From an uncultured delta proteobacterium (GTDB lineage Bacteria > Desulfobacterota > DSM-4660 > Desulfatiglandales > HGW-15), in the NCBI GenBank assembly GCA_963740905.1, contig CAVUFY010000013.1, positions 264,147 to 328,146 of the forward strand: 64,000 nt of DNA, written 5' to 3'. Under the pieces are notes generated by a model. That model was given only the letters and a program-made list of their open reading frames with translations. It did not search any database and had not been told where the DNA came from. Made by a program: the position numbers and the translations under genes. How positions within the stretch are numbered: the stretch's first letter is position 1; every line of letters begins with the position of its first letter. Shown in pieces: positions 6,058 to 64,000 of this stretch.

Positions 6058-7800
6058 ATGGATAAGATACTTCGCGTCGATATGGGTGCGGAAGGCGGCC
6101 CCAAGGCAAAGGCCGTGGATGTTGGCGCCTATGCGGGCCTGGGTGGGCGAGCTCTCACCTCCGCTATCGTTTCCAAAGAAGTGCCTCCCCTGTGTCATCC
6201 TCTGGGCGAAGGAAACAAGCTGGTTATTGCTCCGGGGCTCTTAAGCGGCACAACCGCCGCCATGTCGGGCCGTCTCTCGGTGGGCTGCAAGAGCCCACTC
6301 ACCGGCGGAATCAAGGAGGCTAACGCAGGAGGCCAACCGTCGCAGATGCTTGCCAGACTGGGGTATGCGGCTATTGTTCTGGAAGGAAAACCGAAAGACG
6401 ACACCCTTTACAAGATACTCATTAACAAGGACGGCGCAAAAATCATTCCGGATAAGAGCCTCAGGATGCTGGGTAACTATGATCTGGTGGAAAGGTTAAA
6501 AAAGGAATACGGGGACAAAGTGGGTATCATTTCAATTGGGCCTGCCGGTGAAATGAAGATGTCAGCGGCTTCCATCGCTTGCACGGATATGGAAATGCGG
6601 CCCACCAGACACGCGGGACGAGGGGGCGTAGGAGCCGTCATGGGTGCCAAGCATGTAAAGGCCATCATCCTTGACGACACGGGCATGAAGATGCGTTCCC
6701 CTAAGGATCCCGAGACGTTCAAAGACGCCAGCAAGAAATGGGTGGAAGGACTCCGCAAGCACCCCGTAACGGGGCAGGGTCTGCCCGCTTACGGCACCAA
6801 TGTGCTCACCAACGTCATCAATGAGGCAGGCGGCTATCCGACCCATAACTTCATGTGGGGCCGTTTCGAGGGATGCTCCAAGATCAGCGGGGAGACGCAG
6901 GCTGAGACGGAAAATGCAAGGGGCGGCGAAGGTTCCGCGACCCACGGCTGCCACCGCGGCTGTATCATCCGCTGCTCGGGCACATTCTATGATAAGGACG
7001 GTCACTACATGACCAAGCAGCCTGAATACGAGACCGTGTGGGCTCACGGCGGCAACTGCGGGATTGATGATCTTGACGCCATTGCCACGTTGGATCGCAT
7101 GGATGACGATTTCGGACTTGACACCATTGAGATGGGCGCCACCATCGCCGTGGCAATGGATGCGGGACTGGCCAAGTTCGGAGATGCACAGGCTGCCATT
7201 AATCTACTCAAAGAGGTGGGCAAGGGAAGTCCGCTCGGTCGTATTCTGGGTAACGGCGCAGCGGTCACGGGCAGAGTGTTCGGGGTGGAAAGAGTCCCCG
7301 TGGTCAAGGGACAATCCATGCCCGCTTACGATCCCCGGGCCGTCCAGGGTATCGGCGTCACTTATGCTACGAGCCCGATGGGTGCCGATCATACCGCCGG
7401 TTACGCGGTGGCAACCAACATCCTGGGAGTGGGCGGCAAGGTTGACCCGTTGAAACCCGAGGGCCAGGCCGAGTTGTCGAGAAACCTGCAGATCGCCACG
7501 GCCGCTATCGATTCTACAGGCATGTGCCTGTTCATCGCCTTTGCGGTAATGGACCAGCCCGAAACCTTTCAGGCTTTGATTGATCTGATCAATTCTTTCT
7601 ACGGTCTCAAGCTGGCTGCGGAGGATGTGACCGCGCTTGGGAAGTCCGTACTGAAAAATGAGAGGGATTTCAACAAGCGGGCCGGTCTCACTGATGAGCA
7701 GGACCGGTTGCCCGAGTTCTTCAAAAAAGAGGCTCTGTCTCCTCATAACATCACCTTCACGGTAACAGACAAGGATCTGGATTCCGTTTTCAACTGGTAA
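6058..7800 (+). CDS. aor: Tungsten-type aldehyde:ferredoxin oxidoreductase (AOR family), copy 1
   Basis: MDKILRVDMG...GLGGRALTSAIV...LVIAPGLLSGT... and C-terminal AOR domains. AAGGAGG lies 6 nt upstream of the ATG at 6058. Confidence 0.92.
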   Translation: MDKILRVDMGAEGGPKAKAVDVGAYAGLGGRALTSAIVSKEVPPLCHPLGEGNKLVIAPGLLSGTTAAMSGRLSVGCKSPLTGGIKEANAGGQPSQMLARLGYAAIVLEGKPKDDTLYKILINKDGAKIIPDKSLRMLGNYDLVERLKKEYGDKVGIISIGPAGEMKMSAASIACTDMEMRPTRHAGRGGVGAVMGAKHVKAIILDDTGMKMRSPKDPETFKDASKKWVEGLRKHPVTGQGLPAYGTNVLTNVINEAGGYPTHNFMWGRFEGCSKISGETQAETENARGGEGSATHGCHRGCIIRCSGTFYDKDGHYMTKQPEYETVWAHGGNCGIDDLDAIATLDRMDDDFGLDTIEMGATIAVAMDAGLAKFGDAQAAINLLKEVGKGSPLGRILGNGAAVTGRVFGVERVPVVKGQSMPAYDPRAVQGIGVTYATSPMGADHTAGYAVATNILGVGGKVDPLKPEGQAELSRNLQIATAAIDSTGMCLFIAFAVMDQPETFQALIDLINSFYGLKLAAEDVTALGKSVLKNERDFNKRAGLTDEQDRLPEFFKKEALSPHNITFTVTDKDLDSVFNW

Positions 7801-8565: not shown

Positions 8566-8802
8566 TCATCCGCCGGCGACGGGCGGGAAAACTCCTATTC
8601 TGTCCCCTTCACGGAGCACTTCATCTCCTGTCGCTTGGACGCCGTTGAGAAAGACCACTTTTACGGCTTCCAGAGGGACCTTCATCGCCTCCAGAAGCTC
8701 TCTCACCGTGATCCCCACATTCGCCTCCACCGTCGGTGAACCCCTCCACTGCTCCGGCATGAAACGGGAAAGCGAGGCATAGAGTCTCAATTGTATTTTC
8801 AT
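8566..8802 (-). CDS. MoaD/ThiS-family sulfur-carrier protein (ends in Gly-Gly)
   Basis: 78 aa with C-terminal ...GDRIGVFPPVAGG. Confidence 0.75.
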   Translation of the reverse strand: MKIQLRLYASLSRFMPEQWRGSPTVEANVGITVRELLEAMKVPLEAVKVVFLNGVQATGDEVLREGDRIGVFPPVAGG

Positions 8803-8817
8803 GAAAGATCAATAACC

Positions 8818-9768
8818 ATGGCCAAAGACATTTGTCAACGGTCACTGGAAATGGACGATTTTCTTGCATTCCCCTCAAAAAAGCTTTACACGAGACCTAT
8901 GGAAGATGCGCTGGCGAAGATCATTCGAAGCAAAGCAAGAAGATTTGAGGATCCCGCAGGCCGCCAAGTGGACGTCCTTGATGAGCATGAGGCGCTGGAG
9001 ATAGGTCGGGCTTGCGATTCTTCCCTCCGCGAGATTTACAGGCAAGCCCTCCGCCTCGGCCTCTGTCCCTGTCGATACGTGAGGAACAGACAGATCCTTT
9101 CCCTCCAGGAACAACTGAAGCTGGCCGAGTCACGAGTAACGGTGGTGGGCGCCGGGGGGCTTGGAGGTTCTGTCCTGTCTTTGCTGGCCCGGGTGGGAGT
9201 GGGTCACCTCGTGGTGGTAGACAGTGATGCTTTCGATGAGACGAATTTGAATCGCCAAGCCTTTTGCCACGTTGAGAACCTGGGAAAGCTCAAGGCCCAA
9301 GAAGCGCGCAGCCAGATGAAACGCATCAACCCGGGCGTGGAGGTCACGGCCCACGCAACTCTCTTTGATGATTCCAACGGGAGGGAGATCCTCACCGGTT
9401 CTCAGGTCGCCGTCGACGCCCTTGACAATGTGGAGAGTCGTCTGGTCCTGGAAAAGATTGCCCGGAGTCTCTGTATCCCTCTGGTCCATGGAGCTCTGGC
9501 AGGTTTCGAGGGGCAGGTTATGACCATATTTCCCGGAGACACCGGACTGCGGCAAATCTATGGAGATGGAAGAAAAGAAACCGATGCTTTTGCGCGGCCA
9601 GAGGCGATTCTCGGGGTACCCGGGATTACGCCTTCCCTCGTCGCCGCCTTTCAGGCCATGGAAGTTCTCAAGATCCTGTTGAACCGGGGAAGCGTCTTCA
9701 GGAACACAATGGCCTACGTGGATCTTGAAAGCGGCGAAATCAGTCGTTTTAGTTTTAGTGAAGAGTGA
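8818..9768 (+). CDS. ThiF/MoeB/HesA-family adenylyltransferase with an N-terminal extension
   Basis: VTVVGAGGLGGSVLSLLARVGVGHLVVVDSDAFDETNLNRQ is the E1-like nucleotide-binding motif. The start is uncertain (8791, 8818 or later). Confidence 0.8.
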   Translation: MAKDICQRSLEMDDFLAFPSKKLYTRPMEDALAKIIRSKARRFEDPAGRQVDVLDEHEALEIGRACDSSLREIYRQALRLGLCPCRYVRNRQILSLQEQLKLAESRVTVVGAGGLGGSVLSLLARVGVGHLVVVDSDAFDETNLNRQAFCHVENLGKLKAQEARSQMKRINPGVEVTAHATLFDDSNGREILTGSQVAVDALDNVESRLVLEKIARSLCIPLVHGALAGFEGQVMTIFPGDTGLRQIYGDGRKETDAFARPEAILGVPGITPSLVAAFQAMEVLKILLNRGSVFRNTMAYVDLESGEISRFSFSEE

Positions 9769-32325: not shown

Positions 32326-32433
32326 ATTCACTGTTTTGGGTTCATAATGATGAACTCCCTTTCGGGACTTCAGTTCCGACGGAGTCGGGAGCTATCTGAA
32401 ATTCGAAGGAGTCGGATTTCAGGGAGGAACGAG

Positions 32434-33492
32434 ATGGATTTTGAAAACCTTGTCGAAGGTCCTTTACTGTGGATTGTTTTTCTCGTCCTCATCATCGCCG
32501 TCCTGGCAAGGCTGAGCTTTTTTTCCTTCAAAATTATCCATGACGCCGACACGGCGCAACCTGGGCGGAGTTCGAAAGCCGCCCTGTTCGGTCGATTCTT
32601 TTTCCCTTTCCATAAGGCATTGGTCAAGAGACCAGCCTATGCTCTCCCACGCTACATTTTTCATTTCTGCCTGTTTGTAGTTCCCCTCTGGTTGGGCGGT
32701 CATGTAGCGCTTTGGGCCGAATCCCGTTTTGAATGGGAGTGGTCTTCCCTGCCCGACCCCGTTGCGGACTGGATGACCATCGCCGTAATGGTCATAGCCG
32801 TGTTCTACGTCATCCGAAAGATCGCGTGGCCCGGTGTAAGACCAGGATCGTTGTCCGACTACCTGATCATCCTCATCGCCGCGCTACCTTTCTTCACCGG
32901 GTACTCTCTTTCTCACGGAACCCTCGACGCTCTGCCTGTGATCGGAGGGCATGTGATGCTCATCCATGTACTGAGCGGTCAGGCGATGATGGTCATGGCA
33001 GCGTTTCTCTTCTGCAGAACACGGCTAAACCCATCGAGATGCACGGGATGTGCTTCCTGCGAATTAAGCTGCCCTACCGGGACTCTCGAATCCAAAGATG
33101 AGGGAAGATTTCGAATTTTCAGTTACTCCCATTATCAATGCATTTGTTGTGGCGCCTGCGTTAACACCTGCCCGGAGAATGCTGCGGAGCTCAGACACGA
33201 AATCAGCCTCAAGGAGTTCTTTCAGGTTATCCCTAAGCAGGAAATCAGATCAGTAGAACTGAAGGCCTGCCAGAAATGCGGCGCTCTTTTCGTGCCCGAG
33301 CCTCTATTGGATAAAATCAACCGGACCTTTTCGGACGACTATCTCTTCTTCTGCCCGAACTGCAGAAAAACCAACCTCCTCAATCTGTACCGCAGGCTGT
33401 CACCCCTGTATACCAAAGAGCCGTCTCCTTCGCATGAGCCTGTGTTACCCGAGACAAAAAACGGCTCTTCCGAAAGACCCGCACACCGCTAG
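32434..33492 (+). CDS. Membrane protein: NarI/DsrM-like 5-TM (putative b-type cytochrome) domain fused to a 2x[4Fe-4S] ferredoxin domain
   Basis: About five hydrophobic helices carry His residues in helices 2 and 5 (FHFCL...GGHVALW; GGHVMLIHV). These are followed by CTGCASCELSCP and CICCGACVNTCP. The start is at MDFENL; the ORF opens at 32347. Confidence 0.7.
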   Translation: MDFENLVEGPLLWIVFLVLIIAVLARLSFFSFKIIHDADTAQPGRSSKAALFGRFFFPFHKALVKRPAYALPRYIFHFCLFVVPLWLGGHVALWAESRFEWEWSSLPDPVADWMTIAVMVIAVFYVIRKIAWPGVRPGSLSDYLIILIAALPFFTGYSLSHGTLDALPVIGGHVMLIHVLSGQAMMVMAAFLFCRTRLNPSRCTGCASCELSCPTGTLESKDEGRFRIFSYSHYQCICCGACVNTCPENAAELRHEISLKEFFQVIPKQEIRSVELKACQKCGALFVPEPLLDKINRTFSDDYLFFCPNCRKTNLLNLYRRLSPLYTKEPSPSHEPVLPETKNGSSERPAHR

Positions 33493-33784: not shown

Positions 33785-34063
33785 ATGGCGCCAGAGAAAG
33801 GAGATCTTTCAACAGCAGAAAGCCTGCGCTCTACCAGGACATACGGCAAATTCCGATGCCACAATCCCACATGCATGGAAAGGCTGGAACCCAAGAAAGG
33901 TGATAAAACCATCAAGTGCCCGTCGTGCGGCATGGAATACCGCGTTGCATGGGTCAAGGATGGACTCCCTCGAATCAGGGGACCGGTCTGGGACGTGAAC
34001 CGAAAAATCGCTGAAGAAGAATTAGCCAGAAAAATGCAGGCTAAGGGGAAGGAGGAGAAGTAA
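33785..34063 (+). CDS. Small zinc-ribbon protein (92 aa), translationally coupled to AOR-2
   Basis: AGGAGAT SD, then MAPEKGD...CHNPTCMERL...CPSCGMEY. Its stop overlaps the AOR-2 start (TAATG). Confidence 0.6.
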   Translation: MAPEKGDLSTAESLRSTRTYGKFRCHNPTCMERLEPKKGDKTIKCPSCGMEYRVAWVKDGLPRIRGPVWDVNRKIAEEELARKMQAKGKEEK

Positions 34064-36003
34064 TGCCTTTAAACAGAAAAATTGCTTATATTGATCTCAC
34101 CACAGGGGACATCCAGATAAAACCTATTCCTATCGAGGTTCGAAAAAAGTTCCTCGGAGGCAGAGGGCTGGACGCCTACCTGCTTTTTAACCACGCCAAA
34201 GAGGGGTGTGATCCCCTCGGCCCGGACAATGCGCTCATGGTGAGCGGCGGATTCCTTTGCGCCACCTGCGCTTCTGCAACGTCCAGGTGCCATGTGATGG
34301 CCAAATCCCCCCTAACCGGACTTTTGGGGAGCTGCAACATGGGCGGTTTTTTTTCTCCTGAAATGGCCTGGGCAGGGTTCCATCATCTGGTAATCACAGG
34401 CAAAGCCAAGCATCCCGTATACATCTATATCCATAACGGCGAAATCGAGATCCGTGACGCCCGCGGCGTGTGGGGCCTGAGTGTGACGGAAGCTCAATGG
34501 GCCATTCGGGATGATCTCGGCGACCAGGAAGTCAAGAGCATGGTCTGCGGCCCTGCCGGCGAGAACCTGGTCCGATACGCCAACGTGATGACCGGGATCA
34601 AAAACTCGGGCGGAAGGACAGGCATGGGCTGCGTCATGGGCTCGAAGAACCTCAAGGCCGTTGCCGCCAGGGGAACCATGGACATCCCCATCGCACACCC
34701 CAAAGAGGCTCTCGAATTCAATAAGCGTTTCATTGAACAGATCACGAGCGCCAAGGTGAACCAGACCCAGGGCACCATCGGTACGCCCTTCATCTGGGGC
34801 GCCACCAACTCCTGGGGAGGAATCCGGTGTAGGAACTTCCAGTTAAACCAGTGCGAATACGCGGATGACGTCGAACCTGAGCATCTCGACGAAATCGCCG
34901 AGGAAACGATCGGACCCTACCACATGACCGGTTGTTTCGGTTGTCAGGTGCACTGCCGGGCTCAGTACAAGATCCCAGATGGTCCCTATGCGGGCAAGTA
35001 TGATGAGGGGCCGGAATATACCTCCCAGGGCGCTTTCTGCGGGGAAACGGACACCCCCAGGGCAACTACTCTGCTGACAGCCAACCACCTTGTGGATCAG
35101 TACGGAGTGGACAACCTTGAAATCGGCAGCATTATCTCCTGGGCCATGGAGCTCTATGAGTTGGGGATACTGACCAGCAAAGACACGGACGGCGTGGATC
35201 TGCGCTTCGGCAATGACGAAGCGGTCATTGAAATGATCCACCGCATTTGCTACAGGAAGGGTTGGCTTGGCGACGCTCTGGCCGACGGAGGTATTCCTGC
35301 TTCGAAGAAGATCGGCAAGAACTCCTTCAGCTATCTGATCCAGGTCAAGGGCATGAGCAACCTTCATTCCGACGAGCGGGCCACGCCGGGCCTTGCGCTC
35401 AACATCGCCACCTCCTCCAGAGGTTCGGACCACCTGCGAAGCCGGCCTGCTATCGACCTTTATCACCTTCCTGAACCGGTCATGCGAAAGATTTACAGCA
35501 GTCCGGTTCCTTACGACGGACCCTTGAGCTCCGAGCATACGGAATATATCGGCAAACCCTGGCAGGTCTTCTGGCATGAAAACTGTTACATGGCCGTGGA
35601 TTGCCTCGGGATCTGCAAATACCACACGACTTTTCTCGGGGCGACCCTTCCCAACTTCGAGGACTGGGCAAAGGTCATTTACTACAATACGGGCCTTCAG
35701 TTTACCCCTCAGGAAATCTGGGAGGTCGCCGAGAGGTGTAACAACATGGAGCGGCTCTTCAACTTGAGGGAAGGGTTGTCCAAGGATGATCCTGAAAAGG
35801 GCGATGTGCTCAACCATCGTTATCACGACGAGCCTTGCAGGCGTGGCGCGCCGGACGTCGTCGGTCGACTCATTGATAAGGACAAGTTCCTGAAGATGAG
35901 GGCTGAGCTTTACGGCCACAAGGGTTGGGATGAAGATGGAATCCCCACACCTGAGACTCTGAAAAGACTCGGCATCGACAACGAGCCGTCACACTTGGTG
36001 TAA
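34063..36003 (+). CDS. aor: Tungsten-type aldehyde:ferredoxin oxidoreductase (AOR family), copy 2
   Basis: IAYIDLTTG...FLGGRGL..., Cys ligand region, and AOR C-terminal domains. At 646 aa it is longer than copy 1. Confidence 0.92.
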   Translation: MPLNRKIAYIDLTTGDIQIKPIPIEVRKKFLGGRGLDAYLLFNHAKEGCDPLGPDNALMVSGGFLCATCASATSRCHVMAKSPLTGLLGSCNMGGFFSPEMAWAGFHHLVITGKAKHPVYIYIHNGEIEIRDARGVWGLSVTEAQWAIRDDLGDQEVKSMVCGPAGENLVRYANVMTGIKNSGGRTGMGCVMGSKNLKAVAARGTMDIPIAHPKEALEFNKRFIEQITSAKVNQTQGTIGTPFIWGATNSWGGIRCRNFQLNQCEYADDVEPEHLDEIAEETIGPYHMTGCFGCQVHCRAQYKIPDGPYAGKYDEGPEYTSQGAFCGETDTPRATTLLTANHLVDQYGVDNLEIGSIISWAMELYELGILTSKDTDGVDLRFGNDEAVIEMIHRICYRKGWLGDALADGGIPASKKIGKNSFSYLIQVKGMSNLHSDERATPGLALNIATSSRGSDHLRSRPAIDLYHLPEPVMRKIYSSPVPYDGPLSSEHTEYIGKPWQVFWHENCYMAVDCLGICKYHTTFLGATLPNFEDWAKVIYYNTGLQFTPQEIWEVAERCNNMERLFNLREGLSKDDPEKGDVLNHRYHDEPCRRGAPDVVGRLIDKDKFLKMRAELYGHKGWDEDGIPTPETLKRLGIDNEPSHLV

Positions 36004-36635: not shown

Positions 36636-38066
36636 ATGGAAATTAAGACCATCGATCTCCTTTCTGTCGGCATAGACGTCGGCAGCGCAACCAGTCACTT
36701 GGTCTTTTCAAACCTGGTCCTGGCGAAGGACGAGATGTCCCCGACGCTCCGGTTCAATATCAAGCAAAGAAAGGTCATTTACGAGGGCGAGATCATTCAG
36801 ACCCCTCTTCTCGAAGACAAGACTATTGATGTGGATGCGTTGACCGCCTTTTTCAGGCGGGAATACGAGAAGGCGGGAATTGACCCCGCCCACATTCAAA
36901 CCGGCGCGGTGATCATTACCGGGGAGTCGGCCAAGAGACACAACGCACGGCAGATCGCTCAGGCCCTGTCCAAGGATGCAGGGAAGCTCGTGGCGGCGAC
37001 TGCGGGCCCTAACTTCGAAAGCCTTCTCGCTGCTATGGGCTCCGGAGCAACCGGAAGATCAAGAGATCAGAGCAAGACCATACTTTCCTGCGACATCGGC
37101 GGCGGGACATCCAACCTGGCCATTTCCAGAAACGGTGAAGTTCTCTCAACGAGTTGCATCGCTGTAGGCGGCAGATTACTGGCCATGGATTCTGAGATAA
37201 GAATCCGCCAGTTTGCCGATCCGGCGATGAAAGTCATGCGGGATATCGGCTTGAACTATCAGGTCGGCGATCGGATACTCAAAGAGGATATTGGAAAAAT
37301 CGCATCCAGGATGGCCGAAGTGCTGGTTGAAGTGTTGACGGGGCCTGCCAAGTCTTCCCTGGCAAAACAGCTCATGGTAACCGGTGATCTGGACTTTTCG
37401 ACCCCTGTCGATGAATATCTGTTTTCCGGAGGGGTGGCAGAGATCATCTACGGAAGAAAGGGTCGTTACAATGACATCGGAAGTATTCTTGCAAAAAAGA
37501 TCCAATCGTTGATTCCTGCACTCAAGTCTCCGGTTGTAGAGCCGGTCAACAAGATCAGAGCGACGGTCATCGGTGCAGGGGCCTATTCCCTGTCCGTTTC
37601 GGGTTCGTCGGGCTTTATAGACGACCGTCTCATCCTTCCTATCAGAAACATCCCTGTCCTGAGGGTGGACGCGGAGCTTCCAAAGCTGAGTCTGGAACAT
37701 GTCGTTTCACGGGTGAACATGGCTTTTCGGAGACATGATTTGCTCGAAGGCCAGGAAATCGTGGCCCTCTACTTCAAGGACCCTGTCCGGGTCAACTATC
37801 CGGAGCTGGAGCTCTTTGCAAAAGCCATGGAAACGGCCCTTCCAAACTCTATCACCAAAGAGCTGCCCATTGTCCTCATTTTTGGAAAAGATATCGCATG
37901 CAGTGTGGGCAAGGTTATTCGCCGGGAAACCGATTTGAAAACCAATCTGCTTTCCCTGGACGAATTATCCCTCAACGACGGGGATTGGATCGATATTAGC
38001 GAGCCTTTGGTAGGGCGGCAGGTATTTCCTGTCACCGTCAAATCGCTCGTCTTCCCTGTAAACTAA
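36636..38066 (+). CDS. EutA-family (ethanolamine ammonia-lyase reactivase-like) ASKHA ATPase
   Basis: LLSVGIDVGSATSHLVFS...GAVIITGESAKRHNAR...VAATAGPNFES...DIGGGTSNLA...VGGRLL parallels E. coli EutA block by block, as I recall that sequence. Confidence 0.85.
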   Translation: MEIKTIDLLSVGIDVGSATSHLVFSNLVLAKDEMSPTLRFNIKQRKVIYEGEIIQTPLLEDKTIDVDALTAFFRREYEKAGIDPAHIQTGAVIITGESAKRHNARQIAQALSKDAGKLVAATAGPNFESLLAAMGSGATGRSRDQSKTILSCDIGGGTSNLAISRNGEVLSTSCIAVGGRLLAMDSEIRIRQFADPAMKVMRDIGLNYQVGDRILKEDIGKIASRMAEVLVEVLTGPAKSSLAKQLMVTGDLDFSTPVDEYLFSGGVAEIIYGRKGRYNDIGSILAKKIQSLIPALKSPVVEPVNKIRATVIGAGAYSLSVSGSSGFIDDRLILPIRNIPVLRVDAELPKLSLEHVVSRVNMAFRRHDLLEGQEIVALYFKDPVRVNYPELELFAKAMETALPNSITKELPIVLIFGKDIACSVGKVIRRETDLKTNLLSLDELSLNDGDWIDISEPLVGRQVFPVTVKSLVFPVN

Positions 38067-52592: not shown

Positions 52593-53207
52593 ATGGCTAT
52601 TTTTAATGCAAAGGATAGAATCATTGAGTGTAAGCTCGTTTATTACGGTCCGGGCCGTGGTGGAAAGACAACCAATTTGGACTATATCTTCAAGGCCTTC
52701 AACAAGAACACTTCAGCGGAAATGGTGTCCATCAATACCATGGGCGATCGGACCCTGTTTTTTGATTTTCTGCCTATGGGTTTGGGGAAAATTCGGGGCT
52801 GCGAAGTAAAGATCCAACTCTATACCGTGCCCGGTCAGGCGAGATATCGCTCCACGAGAAAAATGGTGCTTAAGGGAGTAGATGGGGTGGTCTTCGTAGC
52901 GGATTCTCTTGAGGTTCGAAGGAAAGCGAATATTCTGTCGCTCAAGGATCTTGCCGAAAACCTTAAGGAGGAAGGGAAGAGCATCTTTCAGATTCCGCTC
53001 GTTCTCCAGTACAATAAGAGAGACTTAAAGGACCAAGGGATCCCCCTTTTGCCTGAGAAACTCATGGATGTGGACCTCAACAGCAAGTTGAAAGCGCCCT
53101 ATTTTAGCGCAAGCGCTCTCAAAGGGCCGGGTGTGGGAGCAACCTTGAAACAGGCTTTGCTTCTCACGTTGCGCCAGCTCCAAAAAGAACTGCAGTGGAC
53201 GAGGTAA
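52593..53207 (+). CDS. mglA: MglA-family Ras-like small GTPase
   Basis: ECKLVYYGPGRGGKTTNLDYI...GDRTLFFDFLP...IQLYTVPGQARY...LKGVDGVVFVADS...QYNKRDL aligns along its length with M. xanthus MglA as I recall it. Confidence 0.88.
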   Translation: MAIFNAKDRIIECKLVYYGPGRGGKTTNLDYIFKAFNKNTSAEMVSINTMGDRTLFFDFLPMGLGKIRGCEVKIQLYTVPGQARYRSTRKMVLKGVDGVVFVADSLEVRRKANILSLKDLAENLKEEGKSIFQIPLVLQYNKRDLKDQGIPLLPEKLMDVDLNSKLKAPYFSASALKGPGVGATLKQALLLTLRQLQKELQWTR

Positions 53208-53217
53208 GGATTTCAGG

Positions 53218-54399
53218 ATGAGTGGAAAAGTTGTACTCACGGGCGGACTGAAGTTCACGAGTCTCGCAGACCTCTTTCAAATCATCGGCGGCAACAACAG
53301 TACCGGTACTCTCCGTATCAGCAGTCAGTATACCCCTGACACAGGGATCATCAACTTCCAGGATGGAAATCCCATCAATGCGATCGATGGCAATCTGAAG
53401 GGGCTGGAAGCCATTTACTCTCTGTTTGGAAGAACCGAAGGAAATTTCGAATTCGTTGAGGAAAAGGTTCCCGTCGAACACGTGGTCAAGAAGAGCCGCA
53501 TGGAAATCGTCCTGGATGCTTTACGCATGCTCGATGATGGCGTCATCAAGAAAGTGGAGCCTCTTTCCACGCAGGAGATTTTTGTCGGGAAACCCGCAAA
53601 GCCGGAAGAACAGCAAAAAGCCGGACCTCCTGCCATCAAAGGGCCTGCCATTGATTATCTTTATATCCTGGAAGAGGAAGAGTTTTACGACGGCAAGACC
53701 ATCGTTAAGGAGGGAACGCATGGCAAATGGATCTGGGTCTTGCTCGAGGGCAAGGTCAAGATCAGCAAGAATACCCAGAGAGGGCCTTTGACCATTCTCC
53801 ACCTTGGCGAGGGATGTTACGTCGGGACCTTTACCTCCCTTTTGTTTCATGATTATGCACGAAGCGCCACGGTCACGGCGGTGGGCGACGTCCGGCTGGG
53901 TTTGCTTGACACACAGAGACTTGCAGGAGAATTCTACACCCTGTCTCCTGAATTCAGAGGAATGTTGGCCAGTCTTGACCGCCGGCTGAAAAAGACAACG
54001 GAAAGAGTCGCCGAGCTGGCGATGAAACAACAAGGGTTCGCAGTACCTCAAAAAGGATTGGAGGTCCTGATCCCGATGGGCTCCAAAAGAGACAACGCAT
54101 ACCTGATCTCGGAAGGGAACGCTTACGTGATAGGAAAAACACAGAAGGGGCTTCTCCCTTTGGTGGAATTGGGGAAGGATGATCTTTTCGGATCAGTCCC
54201 TTTCATGGACATGGGCCAGGAGCCACGTTCCGCTTCCGTGGCGGCTCCAAAAGACTTGAAAGTTCAGAAACTCAACGTCGTCGAACTCCGGGACGCTTAC
54301 AATCAGCTTTCCATGGTTTTCAAAGGCATGATCTCCAACATTTGCACCTGTGTCGCCTACACGACCAAACTCGCATACCTTCTCGGCCGCAAAAAATGA
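53218..54399 (+). CDS. DUF4388 (PATAN-type) domain protein with two cyclic-nucleotide-binding-like domains
   Basis: N-terminus LADLFQIIGGNNSTGTLRIS...INFQDGNPINAI...GLEAIYSLFGRTEGNFEF (DUF4388). Then EGTHGKWIWVLLEGKV...ARSATVTAV and ...PRSASVAAP (CAP-type cNMP-binding signatures). Confidence 0.8.
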   Translation: MSGKVVLTGGLKFTSLADLFQIIGGNNSTGTLRISSQYTPDTGIINFQDGNPINAIDGNLKGLEAIYSLFGRTEGNFEFVEEKVPVEHVVKKSRMEIVLDALRMLDDGVIKKVEPLSTQEIFVGKPAKPEEQQKAGPPAIKGPAIDYLYILEEEEFYDGKTIVKEGTHGKWIWVLLEGKVKISKNTQRGPLTILHLGEGCYVGTFTSLLFHDYARSATVTAVGDVRLGLLDTQRLAGEFYTLSPEFRGMLASLDRRLKKTTERVAELAMKQQGFAVPQKGLEVLIPMGSKRDNAYLISEGNAYVIGKTQKGLLPLVELGKDDLFGSVPFMDMGQEPRSASVAAPKDLKVQKLNVVELRDAYNQLSMVFKGMISNICTCVAYTTKLAYLLGRKK

Positions 54400-57143: not shown

Positions 57144-58064
57144 TCACGAGGGCTTCTGCTTTAAACGCCTGTCCACGAACACAAAGAGTTCTTCCTCGTA
57201 GTAGCGTCCGTTAATCACCTGTCCGGGCGGGAGTCGTTTCACTTCCTTTGCTTCCATGAACCGTAGAAAGCGGCGGTTCATTTCTCGCAGCGATACGGGC
57301 TCCTTCAACATCCGAGCAGGAAAGTTCAAGTTGATAGGACGCGCGGGAATCAGGTGCCGCGTGGATTTGGCAGCAAACAACTTTTTTTTCTTGGCGGCAT
57401 CGACAACCATCTCTTTGCTGATTTGAGGCGTCCACAGGATTATTTCTTCTTCCTTCAGACACTCGCAGAATTGCTGATCCTGGGCATACTGGCAGGGGAT
57501 ATACTCCACTTTCACCCCTTTTTGAATCAGTTCGTCCTGAAACCTTTCCAACATATCGTAAGCCGTTACGGCATCCCTCACCACCTCTTCACTGAAGCGG
57601 ATGACCGCAAAAAACCCGCCCTGCTGAATGCCGCAGCAGTAACATTGCTCCGCCATCACCCTCTGTAGCGAAACTCTGTCACCCACTTCGTAAAGGATTC
57701 CGTGAAACGCTCTAACCGCTCTGCTTATGATTTCCAGGTCCACAACATTTCTAAGAAGCCTGAACCAGTATCTGAGTTTCGTGCTTTGATCAAGATAGTC
57801 GATCCTGCAAACGGGAATATGCTTGAACTGGAGTTTCTTGAAAACATAGGTCCGGTGATTGCCGTCCAAAACGATGTTGTTCCTGTCAATGATGATCGGA
57901 TTCTCGAGGTTTACCAGGTTCTCGAATTCCAGAATCAGCTTGTTCGCGACATGAGGAAAGGTTCTCTCGTGGAGGAGGAGTGAGTCCACACTGGCGATTT
58001 CCAGCTCGAGCCTCAGATTTTCGCTCTCAATGATAAACTTGTCATGCCTGATGGTCGTTTCCAT
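57144..58064 (-). CDS. ParB/Srx-fold (ParB-like N-terminal domain) protein of unknown function
   Basis: PIIIDRNNIVLDGNHRTYVFKKL carries the DGxHR signature of the ParB/sulfiredoxin fold. The C-terminal 200 aa is unassigned. It lies downstream of, and co-oriented with, the gcvT-SHMT fusion. Confidence 0.65.
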   Translation of the reverse strand: METTIRHDKFIIESENLRLELEIASVDSLLLHERTFPHVANKLILEFENLVNLENPIIIDRNNIVLDGNHRTYVFKKLQFKHIPVCRIDYLDQSTKLRYWFRLLRNVVDLEIISRAVRAFHGILYEVGDRVSLQRVMAEQCYCCGIQQGGFFAVIRFSEEVVRDAVTAYDMLERFQDELIQKGVKVEYIPCQYAQDQQFCECLKEEEIILWTPQISKEMVVDAAKKKKLFAAKSTRHLIPARPINLNFPARMLKEPVSLREMNRRFLRFMEAKEVKRLPPGQVINGRYYEEELFVFVDRRLKQKPS

Positions 58065-58166
58065 CTTCGCGGCCTCAATGCGATGTTTCCATTAGCAAAC
58101 TCACTGCGATATTGTGCATCTTAAGGAGGAGGGCAACACCCCGGATGGGCATTTTTCAGCAACCTG

Positions 58167-60818
58167 TTAGAGGAGTCGATGCAGCCTGTCCATCACTCCT
58201 TCATACTCCTCTTCTCGGAAGCAGAACCGAAGGTCAAGAAACTGAGCCCGGAGAGCTTTCACCCGATCGATCACTTTCATGTTTTTCTCAACCACGTCGT
58301 ACAAGAGTGTGGCCAGGACACGGAAATCATCCTCTTCCATGCCGAACCGAGTCATTTCTGAAACGCCCAACCTTAAAGCGCCGGCAACGGTGAAACCCTC
58401 TTCCTCCGGAGTAGCCTGATAGTTACAGATGATGTTGTTTTCTTCGAGTCGTTTGGCGATTTCCGGTCCCCGACCGTAGCCCACCTTAACTATGACCTGG
58501 TGTGTTTCTGTAAAGTCGATAGCCGGGTCACCTGCCACATCCAGTCCGCAGTCTTTGATCGCCCTGGCAAAGGCTTTGGCATTCCTGATCACCCTGGGCT
58601 GGTAAAGATTCTTGAAATGGTTCATTTCGTAGGCTGCCATCAACAGGCCAAGGAGGGTGCCCAGGTGATGATTCGAAGTCGAGCCGGGAAACGCGCGCCG
58701 CTGGACAGCCTCCCAGAGATCATACCTTTCCTCGTGCTCCAAGAAAGGGCTGGCCACTACTCCGCGCTGAGTCCCAAAAAACGTCTTGTGAGTCGATCCG
58801 GTCACCAGGTCCGCTCCCTCTTTGAAGGGTTCCTGAAAGTAAGGACCTACCAAGCCTAAAACGTGAGCCATGTCATACATGACGACAGTGCGCAAATTCT
58901 GCTCGTCGATAAACCGGCAGATCTCTGCCACCGGTTCCCTGTGAAGCACCATGCTCTTCCCGAAGATGATCATTTCCGGCCGGAACTCCTCCACCAGGTC
59001 CAGGGCCTTCGGGACATCGATTTTGTAGGGATTTTCCTGGAGCACAGGGAAATTGATCACTGCCGCTCTTTCCGTCTGTGGGTCTCGTGCCACAAAATCC
59101 CTCAGGGCGCCCATGGGCTGGGCGCTCAAATGCCCCCCCTTTCCGAGATGGTTGTTCATTACAAGACGGATGCGCCGTTGCTCACTCTTGCGGTCCGGGC
59201 GGTTGATGTAATCCACCATAGCGCTGAAGACGGCCATGTTGGCCATTTGGCCGCTAATGATCCTTGTCTCGACTTCTGCACATCCCAGGAACTTCTTCAT
59301 CTCTTCGTGGATCATCCGCTCCACCTCATCGATAAACTCCGTCCCCTGGTAGTAATAGATCTCCATGTCATAAAAAGCCTTGGACTTCCTGTGCTCTGCA
59401 TATCGAAAGGACGGATCGGTGATGGACAGCATTCTAACCATCGGAGAGGCCGTCATTTCAGAAGGAATCAGATTGATGCATTCCCTTTGCCGCCACAGGT
59501 GGTTTTCAAGAGAACGTTGGAGGAGCCTTCCGGCCAGTGAGGGTTCTTGTCCCGAAGGAAGCGCTTCAGTCCGAGGCTCATGATTGAAAATAATGGGGCG
59601 CGCGTAGGGAGGAGCCTCGTTGCGGAGATGGCATTCAACCGCCACGGCTTCCACGCTTCTGCCTCGGATATCAATGCTCACCTGATCTCCTTCTATGATG
59701 TCGCTTGCGATATGAGCGAGGCAGATAGAGCGAAGTTGTTTTTGGTCGGTCATTTCGGAAGCAAGCCCTTCACCTTTGACGACCCAGTAAGGGACCATGG
59801 TTCCGCTCGTCACGTAACCCACATGCTTTCCGTTCCTGAATACTTTTGAGCCGGTGCGAGCCACGCCTCGGCCTGCAACTGCCAAAGGCTGAACCAGGCG
59901 AGGAAGGTCGGCGATCATGGAATAGTCTCTCTCCATAATCCTCCCGAGAGCCTCAAACTGAACGGCAAGGGCATCTCTTCCGACGAAATGGGCCTTGAGA
60001 GGAGAAAAGCTCACGCCGATTCTTACCATGGGGAAACTGAGGACGGGCATGTCCCCACCCTCCGGATCCTGACCCAGTTCGTGGCCGTAAAGGGGCAAAC
60101 CTGCTTCCAGTCTAAGGGTGTCCCTTGCCCCTAAGCCGACGGGCGTAGCTCCCTGACTCCTCAAAGCATCCCAAAGCGCTGGACCCTGGTCGTGTGGCAC
60201 AAAGAGCTCAAAACAAAGGGGTTCACCGGTGTAGCCGGTACGCGCCACCATGACTTGGATGCCCGAAAACGCCGCCACGCTCACCGTATTCCGCATGGGC
60301 TCAGGAAGTGACCCGGCGTCTATGAGACGTTCAAGAATGTTCCGTGATTCAGGGCCCTGCAGGGAAAGCATGACCACCTCTTGAGTCACGTCCCTCAACT
60401 CAACCTTGGGGAACGCTTTCAGGTAGTGCTGGAAGTGGTTCCAATCTTTCTTCGAGTTGGAAGCATTCACGACGAGCAGGTATTCATCGTCCAGGAACCG
60501 ATACAGGTAGGCGTCGTCAACCGTTCTACCCCTTTCGTCCGGTATGAGCGTATACTGCGCCCCTATGATCCTGGGATCAAGACCGGCGGCGTTATTGCTG
60601 AGGACGTGATTCAGAAAATTCAGCGACCCTTCTCCACGAATGATGAACCGGCCCATGTGGGACACATCGAAAAGACCCGCCCCCTTCCTTGTGGCCAGAT
60701 GCTCCTCCACGATTCCTGTAGGGTAAAGCACCGGCATCTCCCAGCCGGCGAAATCTACCATCTTGGCACCGAGTGAAACATGTCTGTCATAGAATACAGT
60801 CTTCTTGAACTGACCCAT
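58167..60818 (-). CDS. Fusion protein: glycine cleavage T-protein (aminomethyltransferase) N-terminus and serine hydroxymethyltransferase-like C-terminus
   Basis: N-terminus: TVFYDRHVSLGAKMVDFAGWEMPVLY...GLFDVSHMGRF...ARDTLRLEAGLPLYGHEL (GcvT). C-terminus: INLIPSEMTASPMV...GGHLS...LVTGSTHKTFFGTQRGVV (SHMT PLP-lysine motif). The ORF is 883 codons with no interruption. Confidence 0.88.
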   Translation of the reverse strand: MGQFKKTVFYDRHVSLGAKMVDFAGWEMPVLYPTGIVEEHLATRKGAGLFDVSHMGRFIIRGEGSLNFLNHVLSNNAAGLDPRIIGAQYTLIPDERGRTVDDAYLYRFLDDEYLLVVNASNSKKDWNHFQHYLKAFPKVELRDVTQEVVMLSLQGPESRNILERLIDAGSLPEPMRNTVSVAAFSGIQVMVARTGYTGEPLCFELFVPHDQGPALWDALRSQGATPVGLGARDTLRLEAGLPLYGHELGQDPEGGDMPVLSFPMVRIGVSFSPLKAHFVGRDALAVQFEALGRIMERDYSMIADLPRLVQPLAVAGRGVARTGSKVFRNGKHVGYVTSGTMVPYWVVKGEGLASEMTDQKQLRSICLAHIASDIIEGDQVSIDIRGRSVEAVAVECHLRNEAPPYARPIIFNHEPRTEALPSGQEPSLAGRLLQRSLENHLWRQRECINLIPSEMTASPMVRMLSITDPSFRYAEHRKSKAFYDMEIYYYQGTEFIDEVERMIHEEMKKFLGCAEVETRIISGQMANMAVFSAMVDYINRPDRKSEQRRIRLVMNNHLGKGGHLSAQPMGALRDFVARDPQTERAAVINFPVLQENPYKIDVPKALDLVEEFRPEMIIFGKSMVLHREPVAEICRFIDEQNLRTVVMYDMAHVLGLVGPYFQEPFKEGADLVTGSTHKTFFGTQRGVVASPFLEHEERYDLWEAVQRRAFPGSTSNHHLGTLLGLLMAAYEMNHFKNLYQPRVIRNAKAFARAIKDCGLDVAGDPAIDFTETHQVIVKVGYGRGPEIAKRLEENNIICNYQATPEEEGFTVAGALRLGVSEMTRFGMEEDDFRVLATLLYDVVEKNMKVIDRVKALRAQFLDLRFCFREEEYEGVMDRLHRLL

Positions 60819-61073: not shown

Positions 61074-61103
61074 TCCCTTATTGTTCTTGCTCGGGTGGCT
61101 TAC

Positions 61104-61547
61104 ATGAAAATTGATGAAACCAGCCTTGCTATTATCAAACAACTCGGGGACGGGAGGAAATCTTTCAAGAAAATAGCGAAAGAGCTTTCCCTTTCTGAAA
61201 ACACGGTGCGTGGTCGGGTGAACAGGCTGGTGGACGAAGGGGTTCTGGATGTTGCCGGCCTTGTTGATCCCCAGTCTATTCCCGGACATCGGATGGTCAT
61301 GGTGGGCGTTAAATTACAGACCATGGATTTGATCAATAAAGGCGAAGAATTCAGCAGGCTCCGCGGCGTGGTTTCCGTCAGTGTGGTGACCGGACGCTTT
61401 GATCTTCTTTTGATCGTGCTTCTGAAAGAAGACTTCGGGCTTCTCGAGTTCTACACTGAGGAGGTCGCCTGCATTAAAGAAGTTCAGTCGGTGGAAACCT
61501 TCGTGGTTTACAAGGCTTACAATTTGAAGGTGCCCTACATTTTGTGA
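61104..61547 (+). CDS. Lrp/AsnC-family transcriptional regulator
   Basis: MKIDETSLAIIKQLGDGRKSFKKIAKELSLSENTVRGRVNRLVDEGVL plus a RAM domain. Confidence 0.85.
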   Translation: MKIDETSLAIIKQLGDGRKSFKKIAKELSLSENTVRGRVNRLVDEGVLDVAGLVDPQSIPGHRMVMVGVKLQTMDLINKGEEFSRLRGVVSVSVVTGRFDLLLIVLLKEDFGLLEFYTEEVACIKEVQSVETFVVYKAYNLKVPYIL

Positions 61548-61613: not shown

Positions 61614-62018
61614 ATGAAAGAGTTGAGCGAACTCATACTACCTGAAGACGTGCGTTTTGCGAAGGATCACGAATGGGCGAAGATGGAGAAGGATAATGTG
61701 AAAGTGGGGATCAGCGACTATGCCCAGGATCAGCTCGGGGATATCGTGTTTGTTGAATTGCCTCGTGTTGGGGATACCCTGTCTAAAGGAGACCAATTCG
61801 GTACCGTGGAGTCGGTGAAAGCGGTATCGGAGCTTTTTATGCCCCTCAGCGGAGAGGTCCTTGCTGTCAACATGGTCCTCGAGGAATCTCCGGAATTAGT
61901 GAACAAGTCTCCCTATGATGAAGGATGGATGATCGAGCTGAAACCAAGCGATCTGTCCGAACTGAATGATTTGATGAGCAAAGAGACCTACATCTATATG
62001 CTGAAAGGATCGGAGTAA
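61614..62018 (+). CDS. gcvH: Glycine cleavage system H protein
   Basis: FAKDHEWA...GISDYAQDQLGDIVFVELP...VESVKAVSELFMPLSGEV (lipoyl-Lys). Confidence 0.93.
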   Translation: MKELSELILPEDVRFAKDHEWAKMEKDNVKVGISDYAQDQLGDIVFVELPRVGDTLSKGDQFGTVESVKAVSELFMPLSGEVLAVNMVLEESPELVNKSPYDEGWMIELKPSDLSELNDLMSKETYIYMLKGSE

Positions 62019-63349
62019 TGCGTTACCTTCCCCACACGGCGGAAGAAATTGCAGAGATGCTCCGGGTTGCGGGTGCGGAGAGCCTGGATGCTTTGTTCTC
62101 AGTAGTTCCGGAGGAATGCCGCCGCAAAAACAGGATGAACCTTCCCGAGCCGCTCACAGAGTGGGAGCTGAACAATTTGATGAGCACTCTTGCCCGAACC
62201 ACGGCTGTGCCGCCCGAGTATGCGATCTATCTCGGTGCAGGCCGATACCAACATCATATCCCCTATGCAGTCTCCTATCTACTCGGCCGCTCGGAGTTTC
62301 TCACTTCATACACTCCCTACCAGCCCGAGGTTAGTCAGGGAACACTTCAGGCTATCTACGAGTATCAGACTCTGACTGCCCGGCTTCTTGGGATGGAGGT
62401 AGCGAATGCTTCCATGTATGATGGGGCCTCCGCGCTCGCTGAAGCGCTTCTCATGGCTGTTCGGATCACGCACAGAAAAAGAGTGGTCTTGTCAGGACTG
62501 ATCCATCCCCAATATCGACGGGTTGTCCGCACCTACTTCGAGCCCACGGGCTTCGATGTGCTGGAATTGCCTCGTCTCGAAGATGGGAGAACCGACCCTT
62601 CGTCTCTTTTCGCAGTGGATGATGTTGCCGCCGTGGCCGTTCAATCGCCTAATTTCTTCGGTTGCGTTGAAGATCTCGCCTCCTTTGCAGAGAAGACCCA
62701 TCAAAAAGGAGCCCTTTTGGTCGTTGGCTTTACCGAGCCTTTGGCTTACGGCCTCTTCAAGAATCCGGGTAGCCTGGGGGCCGACATCGCCTGCGGTGAA
62801 GGTCAGAGCCTTGGCATCGCTCAGTCCTTCGGCGGGCCGGGACTCGGCATGTTTAGCAGCTGGATGAAGTATGTGAGGAATATGCCCGGCCGACTAGTGG
62901 GGCAAACAACGGACTTGGAGGGCCAGCGGGGATTTGTCCTGACGCTCGCTACGAGAGAACAGCACATCCGCAGGGAAAAGGCCACCTCTAACATCTGTAC
63001 CAACAACAGCCATTGTGCCCTTGCGGCTGCCATGTACATGGCCTCTCTTGGAGGGACAGGGTTCAGAGAACTTGCCCGCCTGAATCGGGACAAATCCGAG
63101 TACCTCAAAGAGAGCTTGCGGAAGGTGGGCTTCACCTTCCCTTTTTCATCGCCCACCTTCAACGAGTTTGTCGCTGAGGCACCGGAAGGATTTGCGAAGA
63201 CTTATCAGCAACTGCTGGAAAAGAAGATTGTGGCCGGCCTGCCTCTAGCCTCTTTTTACGCCGACCTGCCCAACCATTACCTTTTTTGCGCCACCGAAAC
63301 GAAGACCAGTGAAGACATGGATGTCTTGGCAAAGGAGATCCAGCAATGA
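62018..63349 (+). CDS. gcvPA: Glycine dehydrogenase (decarboxylating) subunit 1
   Basis: MRYLPHT..EI..ML...GAGRYQHHIP...SYTPYQPEVSQGTLQAIYEYQT. TAATG overlap with gcvH. Confidence 0.93.
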   Translation: MRYLPHTAEEIAEMLRVAGAESLDALFSVVPEECRRKNRMNLPEPLTEWELNNLMSTLARTTAVPPEYAIYLGAGRYQHHIPYAVSYLLGRSEFLTSYTPYQPEVSQGTLQAIYEYQTLTARLLGMEVANASMYDGASALAEALLMAVRITHRKRVVLSGLIHPQYRRVVRTYFEPTGFDVLELPRLEDGRTDPSSLFAVDDVAAVAVQSPNFFGCVEDLASFAEKTHQKGALLVVGFTEPLAYGLFKNPGSLGADIACGEGQSLGIAQSFGGPGLGMFSSWMKYVRNMPGRLVGQTTDLEGQRGFVLTLATREQHIRREKATSNICTNNSHCALAAAMYMASLGGTGFRELARLNRDKSEYLKESLRKVGFTFPFSSPTFNEFVAEAPEGFAKTYQQLLEKKIVAGLPLASFYADLPNHYLFCATETKTSEDMDVLAKEIQQ

Positions 63350-64000
63350 ACCATGCTGTGGGAACGACAGGCTTGATCCTGAATGAGCCCCTGCTCTGGG
63401 AGAAGGGAAGTCGCGGAAGAAACGGGTTTTCCCTTCCCCGCAGGGACGTGGAGCCCTGCTCCATTGAGAAGGACCTTGAGGGTGAAGGGCCCGACTTCCC
63501 CGATCTCAGCGAGGTGGATATCGTCCGTCACTACACGAGGCTTTCCACGTGGAACTTTGGTGTAGACACCGGTATGTACCCTCTAGGATCTTGCACCATG
63601 AAGTACAACCCCAAGACAAACGAGCGGCAGGCTTGCCTGCCGGGGTTTGCGGCAGCCCATCCTCTTCTGCCGAGTTCTCTGTCGCAGGGTTTGCTCAAAA
63701 TGATGTTTGAACTGGAGGCGTTCTTGGCCGAGATCACAGGTCTGGATGCGGTTACCCTTCAGCCTGCCGCAGGTGCGCAAGGAGAATTGACGGGTATGCT
63801 CCTGATCCACGCCTATCACAGCAGCACGGGGCGACGCCCCTCGAAAATCATCGTCCCTGACACCGCTCACGGCACGAATCCGGCCAGCGCGGCACTCTGC
63901 GGTTATCGACCCGTCCCTGTGGAGACTAATGAGAGGGGCATTCTTTCTCTTGAGAGCATTGCGAAGGTTATGGATGAGGATACGGCAGCGCTGATGGTGA
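63346..64000 (+). CDS. gcvPB: Glycine dehydrogenase (decarboxylating) subunit 2, N-terminal part (runs off the window)
   Basis: My own translation from the ATG at 63346 gives MNHAVGTTGLILNEPLLWEKGSRGR...VRHYTRLSTWNFGVDTGMYPLGSCTMKYNPK...PDTAHGTNPASA. ATGA overlap with gcvPA; no stop before 64000. Confidence 0.9.
   Translation, partial: MNHAVGTTGLILNEPLLWEKGSRGRNGFSLPRRDVEPCSIEKDLEGEGPDFPDLSEVDIVRHYTRLSTWNFGVDTGMYPLGSCTMKYNPKTNERQACLPGFAAAHPLLPSSLSQGLLKMMFELEAFLAEITGLDAVTLQPAAGAQGELTGMLLIHAYHSSTGRRPSKIIVPDTAHGTNPASAALCGYRPVPVETNERGILSLESIAKVMDEDTAALMV

Follow-up and report, generated by a model that had tools for sequence, protein, structure and literature searches.

A 64-kb stretch of DNA from an uncultured delta proteobacterium of the Desulfobacterota (hereafter the window) encodes, at positions 57144 to 58064 of the minus strand, a 306-residue protein related to the free-serine kinases SerK and SbnI. 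We consider it somewhat better than an even bet (probability of roughly 0.57) that this protein phosphorylates free L-serine and so supplies O-phosphoserine to SerC and SerA or to cysteine synthesis. Its open reading frame (ORF), which starts with ATG, was identified from the list of ORFs of the window and assigned by profile and structure matches. It is co-oriented with, and 102 nt downstream from, a gene encoding a fusion of GcvT and serine hydroxymethyltransferase (SHMT), as an earlier note on this DNA had stated, and it probably links glycine and serine metabolism to phosphoserine.

The protein is related to SerK and SbnI over both domains

PDB entries 5x0b, 5x0e, and 5x0j are structures of SerK from Thermococcus kodakarensis (Tk-SerK, TK0378), PF0380 (1vk1) is its orthologue, and SbnI (Staphylococcus aureus and S. 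pseudintermedius; 5uje, 5ujd, and 6nr6) is an ATP-dependent free serine kinase that also regulates staphyloferrin B synthesis. Tk-SerK is an ADP-dependent free L-serine kinase (PMC5120207), and both characterized two-domain members of the superfamily, SerK and SbnI, are free-serine kinases though very distant from each other (PMC5120207; PMC12704722).

The earlier note had read a DGxHR signature near the N-terminus of the window protein and had proposed a candidate of the SerK type. The signature was found as D67-G68-N69-H70-R71 within the peptide IIIDRNNIVLDGNHRTYVFKKL (residues 57 to 78). The candidate was upheld at the level of the superfamily only, NCBIfam, a profile search of the PDB, and Foldseek all placing the protein with SerK and SbnI. 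The best NCBIfam match was the SerK equivalog NF053625 (E-value of 1.1e-12, 47.7 bits), which aligned residues 23 to 250 of the protein with positions 18 to 240 of the 244 positions of the model; the SbnI model NF033589 came second (31.5 bits). A family profile built from 25 homologues and compared with PDB sequences retrieved 1vk1, 5x0b, 6nr6, and 5ujd with E-values of 4e-10 to 4e-9, the SerK and PF0380 matches running over residues 18 to 249. The ParB-N nuclease domain of pNOB8 was matched by the same profile at 8e-4 over about 70 residues only.

An AlphaFold2 model computed from the alignment of the 25 homologues (pLDDT 90.7, pTM 0.84) displayed the architecture of SerK, an N-terminal ParB/sulfiredoxin (Srx) fold followed by a C-terminal alpha/beta domain. 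Comparison of the model with the PDB by Foldseek returned SbnI and SerK as the only two-domain matches (E-values of 2.4e-14 to 7e-13, 238 to 275 columns, target-normalized TM of 0.59 to 0.74), SbnI being the best (2.4e-14, TM of 0.74). The matches to ParB-N, Noc, PadC, and sulfiredoxin covered approximately 85 N-terminal columns with E-values of 1e-4 or worse (2e-2 over 88 columns for sulfiredoxin). The protein was placed with the free-serine kinases because its best sequence matches were SerK and then SbnI and because only SbnI and SerK matched both domains of the model.

Other members of the fold were considered and rejected. The Pfam search gave no family at E ≤ 1, and thus neither ParB nor DUF1015; on this basis, membership of the DUF1015 (SerBK) family was discarded. 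No PADLOC defense profile matched at E ≤ 0.1 and the neighbors of the gene are metabolic rather than defense genes, arguing against a DndB-like or defense-related ParB-like protein. Canonical ParB was rejected since neither a helix-turn-helix (HTH) nor a dimerization domain was present in the AlphaFold2 model, since no parA is adjacent, and since the match is limited to the N-terminal domain (about 80 columns for ParB and Noc, E ≥ 1e-2). The sole MinD/ParA-like gene of the window (1196 to 1951) is a weak match located 55 kb away, in agreement with the absence of parA and HTH stated in the earlier note. Sulfiredoxin is a single domain of about 100 residues with a catalytic Cys in a GCHR motif; the window protein shares with it, with ParB, and with Noc the N-terminal fold of about 85 residues with a DGxHR-type loop, but it was rejected as a sulfiredoxin since the motif is DGNHR, lacking the catalytic Cys, and since the protein has 306 residues and two domains. 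The structure and profile checks thus led neither to a DNA-binding ParB nor to a nuclease or a DndB-like protein, the placements against which the earlier note had set its candidate.

The catalytic residues of SerK are conserved

Conservation was assessed by aligning the window protein with 135 mutually less than 50%-identical representatives of the family and with the SerK and PF0380 sequences. Sixteen positions were at least 96% conserved (H32, E33, P56, D67, G68, H70, R71, Y90, W100, R102, K217, K233, T235, R236, H237, and R242). Tk-SerK was identical at all of these except R102 (Pro104) and R242 (Asn230). H32-E33 (57966 to 57971, minus strand), the predicted catalytic base, was 99% conserved among the 135 divergent representatives and aligns with H29-E30 of Tk-SerK. 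The register of the alignment was anchored by mutants: the position changed in the E30A and E30Q crystal forms of SerK falls in the column of E33, and the E30Q chain 5x0j shows HQ at the H32-E33 columns. In the DGxHR loop of the ParB/Srx fold (57852 to 57866, minus strand), which is the nucleotide/phosphate site, D, G, H, and R were 99% conserved in the family and identical to D69-G70-H72-R73 of Tk-SerK. The C-domain motif K233-S-T235-R236-H237 (57354 to 57368, minus strand) corresponds to K221-T-T223-R224-H225 of SerK, and K217, near-invariant in the family (96 to 99%), to K205. Y92 and W102 of Tk-SerK are also shared. SbnI has the HE and DGxHR motifs, the T-R pair, and an Arg equivalent to R242, but lacks K217, K233, and H237.

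By homology, the DGNHR loop of the N-domain (D67, H70, and R71) would hold the nucleotide phosphates, E33 would take the proton from the hydroxyl group of serine so that it can attack the terminal phosphate, and K217, K233, T235, R236, and H237 of the C-domain would close over substrate and product. The phosphoryl donor may be ADP, ATP, or another nucleotide. Binding of CTP has been reported for one SerK-like protein (PMC12704722), the identity of which was not found in the supplement of the ParB-CTPase survey.

The window protein and the members of its family, referred to here as the long form, carry a C-terminal extension of about 55 residues (residues ~250 to 306; 57144 to 57317, minus strand) modeled as a helix and a small beta-sheet, in which R287, Y289, and E291 were about 90% conserved. 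The beta module has no counterpart in SerK, which has 242 residues, and the helix partly matches the C-terminus of SbnI, whose C-terminal helix overlaps the start of the extension. The window protein retains all conserved residues of the long form.

Size and distribution of the family

The ORF is a real gene rather than a chance frame since a word-indexed search returned 478 homologues at E ≤ 1e-3, since an exhaustive hidden Markov model search of 1.84 billion representatives at 50% identity returned 1,561 representatives at the same threshold (592 at E ≤ 1e-10 and 133 at E ≤ 1e-30), and since 70 columns were invariant among 25 relatives of 54 to 81% identity. Most long-form representatives have 275 to 305 residues and could be aligned over their whole length, the C-terminal module included; among the 150 best representatives, the majority had the complete extension. 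Several of the 478 homologues had been named 'L-serine kinase (ADP)' by the JGI/IMG pipeline, the rest being 'hypothetical'.

A scan of one genome per species provided 67 loci for the close clade, all of them in metagenome-assembled genomes of uncultured Desulfobacterota (Desulfatiglandales, 'Desulfobacteraceae', and Ca. Desulfacyla). The next-closest named clusters were archaeal (Bathyarchaeia, Njordarchaeales, and 'archaeon') and were labeled hypothetical or 'ParB N-terminal domain-containing protein'. Where clusters bear names, most are archaeal. We infer that the long form probably belongs mainly to archaea and reached the clade in Desulfobacterota by transfer. Our literature search found no paper on the long-form branch and none that connects a serine kinase with bacterial glycine cleavage; nothing relevant came up on serine kinases in relation to the reductive glycine pathway, to glycine cleavage, or to Desulfobacterota.

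The gene is linked to the GcvT-SHMT fusion in Desulfobacterota

The fusion gene located directly upstream (58167 to 60818, minus strand) encodes 883 residues, assigned by Pfam and NCBIfam to GcvT (residues 4 to 397) and SHMT (residues 434 to 859). In the 102-nt spacer (58065 to 58166, minus strand), a terminator-like hairpin was looked for on the minus strand and none was found, and a GAGG sequence precedes the ATG of the candidate kinase gene by 9 nt. These features are compatible with, and not proof of, co-transcription of the two genes. A divergent gene for an Lrp/AsnC-family regulator (61095 to 61547, plus strand), the position of which is kept in related loci, probably serves to regulate the gcv cluster; it is followed by gcvH, gcvPA, and a gcvPB that runs past the end of the window (61614 to 64000, plus strand). 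The candidate kinase gene would probably be co-transcribed with the fusion gene in a glycine-cleavage cluster controlled by Lrp/AsnC. On its other side, gltX, encoding GluRS, converges on its 3' end with a gap of 9 nt.

The genes of the window were mapped onto all related loci and the neighbors were clustered. The fusion gene was directly upstream from the SerK-like gene in 21 of the 48 loci with enough upstream sequence, and these 21 loci were scattered over many SerK-like clades (42 to 63% identity to the window protein). The pairing that the earlier note had pointed out in this one locus is therefore conserved. In the usual setting, gcvPB, gcvPA, gcvH, and asnC are read in one direction, and lpd, the fusion gene, and the SerK-like gene in the other.

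Several features of the fusion and of the cluster were also recorded. The SHMT half retains the THK motif of the PLP-binding lysine, and is a divergent SHMT because its NCBIfam score of 250 bits is below the cutoff of 335. The fusion is kept across metagenome-assembled genomes of Desulfobacterota with 56 to 83% identity (fusion genes of 31 related loci), and no paper mentioning a GcvT-SHMT fusion was found in the literature search. The lpd gene, encoding the L-protein, lies between the Lrp/AsnC regulator gene and the fusion gene in many related clades (L002, L009, L013, L014, L024, L039, and L060) and is missing from this position in the clade of the window. A search of the window and of five related loci for a glycine riboswitch or another Rfam element near the operon gave no match.

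A SerB2-like protein is the most constant neighbor

A gene of about 410 codons encoding an ACT-ACT-HAD protein was a more constant neighbor of the SerK-like gene than the fusion. It was found immediately downstream in 49 of the 57 judgeable loci of Desulfobacterota (for example L002:10910-12145, L025:10886-12106, and L042:10888-12111, plus strand), often with a 4-nt overlap, an arrangement indicative of translational coupling. The pair also occurs without the fusion, for example in an operon comprising genes for Lrp, dapL, lysA, and the pair or behind RACo/ZIP genes, and is followed by a class-V aminotransferase gene in seven loci. A HAD gene is missing downstream from the kinase gene in the window and in the loci most closely related to it (L001, L006, and L008) because gltX converges at this position, and the 64-kb window as a whole contains neither the HAD partner nor lpd, cysK, or serS.

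The partner aligned over its full length, and hence with the same ACT-ACT-HAD architecture, with mycobacterial SerB2 (3p96, E-value of 8e-24). Its best NCBIfam match was SerB, with scores of 105 to 113 bits, under the cutoff of 144. HAD motif I reads F-D-V-E-S in all 61 partners, the general acid/base at Asp+2 being Glu, and motif IV reads GDGSxxSH versus GDGAND. Residues were numbered on the phosphoserine phosphatase (PSP) of Methanocaldococcus jannaschii, the sequence of which was identical to that of 1f5s. Of this PSP, D11, S99, K144, and D167 are retained in the partners, and E20 (variable, never acidic), R56 (Asn in 52 of 61), G100, N170, and D171 are replaced, including E20, R56, N170, and D171 of the canonical enzymes. 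We take E20 and R56 to be the binders of the serine moiety. Canonical PSPs scored about 157 bits against each other, and the partner about 85 bits against them. The DxE variant of motif I is also present in ThrH of Pseudomonas aeruginosa (1rku, beginning MEIACLDLEGV), and the ThrH profile gave about 25 bits only on the partner. ThrH is a phosphoserine phosphatase for which homoserine also serves as an acceptor of the phosphate of phosphoserine, by way of a phospho-enzyme (PMC1079889). Judging from these substitutions, the partner is probably a neofunctionalized paralogue of SerB2 acting as a phosphatase or a phosphotransferase.

Archaeal homologues are repeatedly linked to cysteine synthesis genes

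Metagenomes were scanned with the profile of a narrower archaeal sub-group (A3), the broad archaeal profile (A2) being too diverse for extraction of patterns, and 80 further loci were obtained. The cysK gene was directly upstream from, and co-oriented with, the SerK-like gene in 15 of the 79 judgeable archaeal loci, and serS converged from downstream in 8 loci, plus 2 with serS of the methanogen type. In L079 (6067-9310), located on a 300-kb archaeal contig, cysK (TIGR01139, 366 bits, above cutoff) is separated by 10 nt from the SerK-like gene, behind which serS (485 bits) converges. SerK-like genes behind cysK, sometimes with genes for ThiF-family E1 or NifS-like proteins and with serS converging, were also found in L083 to L100, L106 to L108, L117, L141, L156, and L159. 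The order is ThiF, cysK, ThiF, and SerK-like in L106 and L159, and cysK, SerK-like, and NifS-like in L107. When the loci were grouped into sub-lineages, cysK was no more than two genes away in 4 of 13 groups formed at ≥55% identity or 6 of 19 formed at ≥70%, and SerRS likewise; on a rough estimate, chance would account for a fraction of a percent per lineage for one specific gene.

This linkage resembles the CysM route of mycobacteria, which depends on phosphoserine and a thiocarboxylate. The cysK/ThiF linkage offers independent contextual support for production of O-phosphoserine from serine by the long form, and also parallels the route from serine to O-phosphoserine and cysteine shown genetically for Tk-SerK in T. 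kodakarensis (PMC5120207).

Other archaeal contexts were also found. An archaeal locus containing a TBP gene (L105:284-4551) has gcvT two genes upstream from the SerK-like gene and a class-V aminotransferase gene 46 nt downstream; this is an independent association with glycine cleavage outside Desulfobacterota. In one archaeal lineage (L076/L077:4159-6843), thrS is co-oriented and located 16 nt upstream from the SerK-like gene. In an Asgard-like lineage (L074/L075:6001-8484), a gene for a methanogen-type SerRS converges on the long-form homologue; this class-II synthetase was suspected to be SepRS in L074, a possibility rejected on the basis of the NCBIfam assignment. The proximity of aminoacyl-tRNA synthetase genes to long-form homologues, gltX included, may be a coincidence.

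Proposed function and alternatives

Under the proposed function, serine made from, or exchanged with, glycine and methylene-tetrahydrofolate by SHMT would be pulled irreversibly into the phosphoserine pool, and O-phosphoserine would be converted to 3-phosphoglycerate via SerC and SerA or to cysteine by a phosphoserine-dependent route. A path by which serine would yield 3-phosphoglycerate via phosphoserine has been proposed for T. kodakarensis (PMC5120207; PMC11032457) and suggested for Bacteroides with a different family (preprint 10.1101/2024.10.14.618325). Tk-SerK is the best sequence match, and the archaeal relatives of the window protein share its genomic logic, from serine to phosphoserine and cysteine. 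The window protein differs from it in being bacterial and mesophilic and in belonging to a glycine-cleavage/SHMT operon; SbnI sits in a siderophore operon, and heme or DNA binding, as in SbnI, has no support here for the window protein.

The earlier note had named SerC as the consumer of the product. The gene is present and canonical (1963 to 3081, plus strand; TIGR01364, 480 bits versus a cutoff of 443.6), but it adjoins asnS, 54 kb from the kinase gene and without a positional link to it; SerC is thus a possible consumer, its role being plausible only. The further proposal that the kinase acts on the product of SHMT gained from the conservation of the gene pair, but the tightest partner in the relatives is the SerB2-like HAD protein, which suggests a more complicated physiology.

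Several observations weigh against the assignment as a free-serine kinase. The NCBIfam scores are far under the equivalog cutoffs (380 bits for SerK and 350 for SbnI), so that the protein is a superfamily relative of SerK and SbnI and an orthologue of neither. The identity in the Foldseek alignments is only 16 to 19% (16 to 18% with Tk-SerK). The residues specific to the long form, R102, R242, and R287/Y289/E291, could change the specificity. The HAD partner appears to have lost the residues that bind the serine moiety in PSP, so that its presence is not a clean argument for phosphoserine. No cysK, serA, serC, or serS gene was found near the SerK-like gene in any locus of Desulfobacterota, and many archaeal contexts are uninformative, as in the largest archaeal cluster, where the SerK-like gene lies between a ribosomal-protein operon and trmO.

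A more elaborate version of the proposed function is tentative and, taken as a whole, unlikely. The kinase would provide a 'phosphorylated' exit from the glycine-cleavage/reductive-glycine module in uncultured Desulfobacterota (CO2, NH3, and a one-carbon unit in exchange with glycine and serine, then O-phosphoserine and 3-phosphoglycerate), bypassing serine deaminase and the costly step from pyruvate to phosphoenolpyruvate. The ancestral state would be a translationally coupled pair with the neofunctionalized SerB2-like protein (DxE motif, serine-binding residues lost). This partner would be either a counter-valve gated by amino acids or a phosphotransferase dependent on phosphoserine, and the long form as a whole would have arisen in archaea and been taken up by these bacteria.

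The protein might also be a kinase of the same fold and mechanism acting on another small hydroxy compound (L-threonine, L-homoserine, D-serine, glycerate, ethanolamine, or similar), which we regard as rather improbable. The invariant residues specific to the long form and the additional C-terminal module would fit such a change, as would the thrS gene preceding the SerK-like gene in one archaeal lineage, the dapL-lysA (aspartate-family) operon containing the pair in one clade of Desulfobacterota, and the ThrH-type DxE motif of the HAD partner. However, the long form retains all the residues that it shares with Tk-SerK, including the K/K-x-T-R-H set of the C-domain, and the recurrent neighbors are specific to serine or cysteine (SHMT, cysK, and serS) rather than thrC, hom, or cob.

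Doubtful to a similar degree is the possibility that the kinase of Desulfobacterota is no simple pathway enzyme but works coupled to the ACT-ACT-HAD partner, the two forming either a regulated valve between serine and phosphoserine or a ThrH-like relay in which the phosphate of phosphoserine would be passed to the phospho-aspartate of the HAD protein and then to another acceptor, the partner having been lost or moved in the clade of the window. The position of the HAD gene in 49 of 57 loci, the full-length homology to SerB2, the Glu at Asp+2 as in ThrH together with the four replaced PSP residues, and the phosphotransfer known for ThrH (PMC1079889) all favor such a couple. Yet the kinase evidently can stand alone, since the window, L001, L006, and L008 keep it intact without an adjacent partner; in addition, the ThrH profile scores poorly on the partner and genes of an acceptor pathway are not consistently linked.

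Operation of the kinase in reverse, generating serine and ADP or ATP from phosphoserine and AMP or ADP as a phosphate-conserving substitute for SerB, is very improbable. This function has been proposed for the DUF1015 'SerBK' proteins, remote structural relatives of SbnI that are linked to serA and serC, have been proposed to phosphorylate serine or interconvert it with phosphoserine, and are reported to complement serB (GapMind 2026 preprint 10.1101/2024.10.14.618325). Moreover, serB is a frequent gap in genomes of Desulfobacterota (10.1101/2024.10.14.618325; PMC5764234), and the pair is found in biosynthetic operons in some clades. Against reversal, the reaction is thermodynamically unfavorable (equilibrium constant of about 4e-4 quoted in preprint 10.1101/2024.10.14.618325), the window protein belongs to a family separate from DUF1015, and a phosphatase-like gene usually adjoins the kinase gene.

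A DNA-binding ParB-like protein, nuclease, or transcriptional regulator without a primary role in serine metabolism is the least credible alternative, since, despite the N-terminal ParB/Srx fold, the NCBIfam annotation of SbnI as a bifunctional regulator/kinase, and a former report of PF0380 as a nuclease (PMC5120207), the protein has no HTH or dimerization domain, matches ParB, Noc, and pNOB8 ParB-N over about 85 residues only (E ≥ 1e-4), has no Pfam ParB or PADLOC match and no parA/parS context, and has the catalytic set of the kinases as its invariant residues.

Other genes of the window

Two genes resembling aldehyde:ferredoxin oxidoreductase (6052 to 7800 and 34063 to 36003), a gene for a TmcC/HmcE-like membrane subunit (32347 to 33492), one for a EutA-like reactivase (36636 to 38066), and one for a ThiF/MoeB-like E1 (8791 to 9768) are consistent with an anaerobic genome of the sulfate-reducer type. 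A gene for a small Ras/Arf-like GTPase followed by one for a cyclic nucleotide-binding/PatA_N protein (52593 to 54399) form a pair that adjoins the gcv cluster in L001 as well.

Implications

The free-serine kinases characterized so far are two, SerK, known from a few hyperthermophilic archaea, and the staphylococcal SbnI, and clear homologues of SerK were stated in 2016 to be absent from bacteria (PMC5120207). The long form is a third and much larger branch, with 1,561 clusters at 50% identity, members named in Bathyarchaeia and Asgard archaea, and one clade in Desulfobacterota; its members appear in public records as 'hypothetical' or 'ParB N-terminal domain-containing protein'. If the proposed function is true, a widespread annotation would be corrected, and the family would account for the supply of phosphoserine to the cysteine synthesis that depends on it in many uncultured archaea. 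In relatives of sulfate reducers, it would add a kinase-driven link from serine to 3-phosphoglycerate to the glycine-cleavage/reductive-glycine module, a link that would be of interest for the engineering of one-carbon assimilation. A puzzle of its own is posed by the SerB2-like partner, tightly coupled and altered in its catalytic residues, which may have a phosphotransfer chemistry of the ThrH type. The DxE SerB2-like partner and the possible phosphorylated exit from the reductive-glycine module are the two points whose confirmation would come as a surprise.

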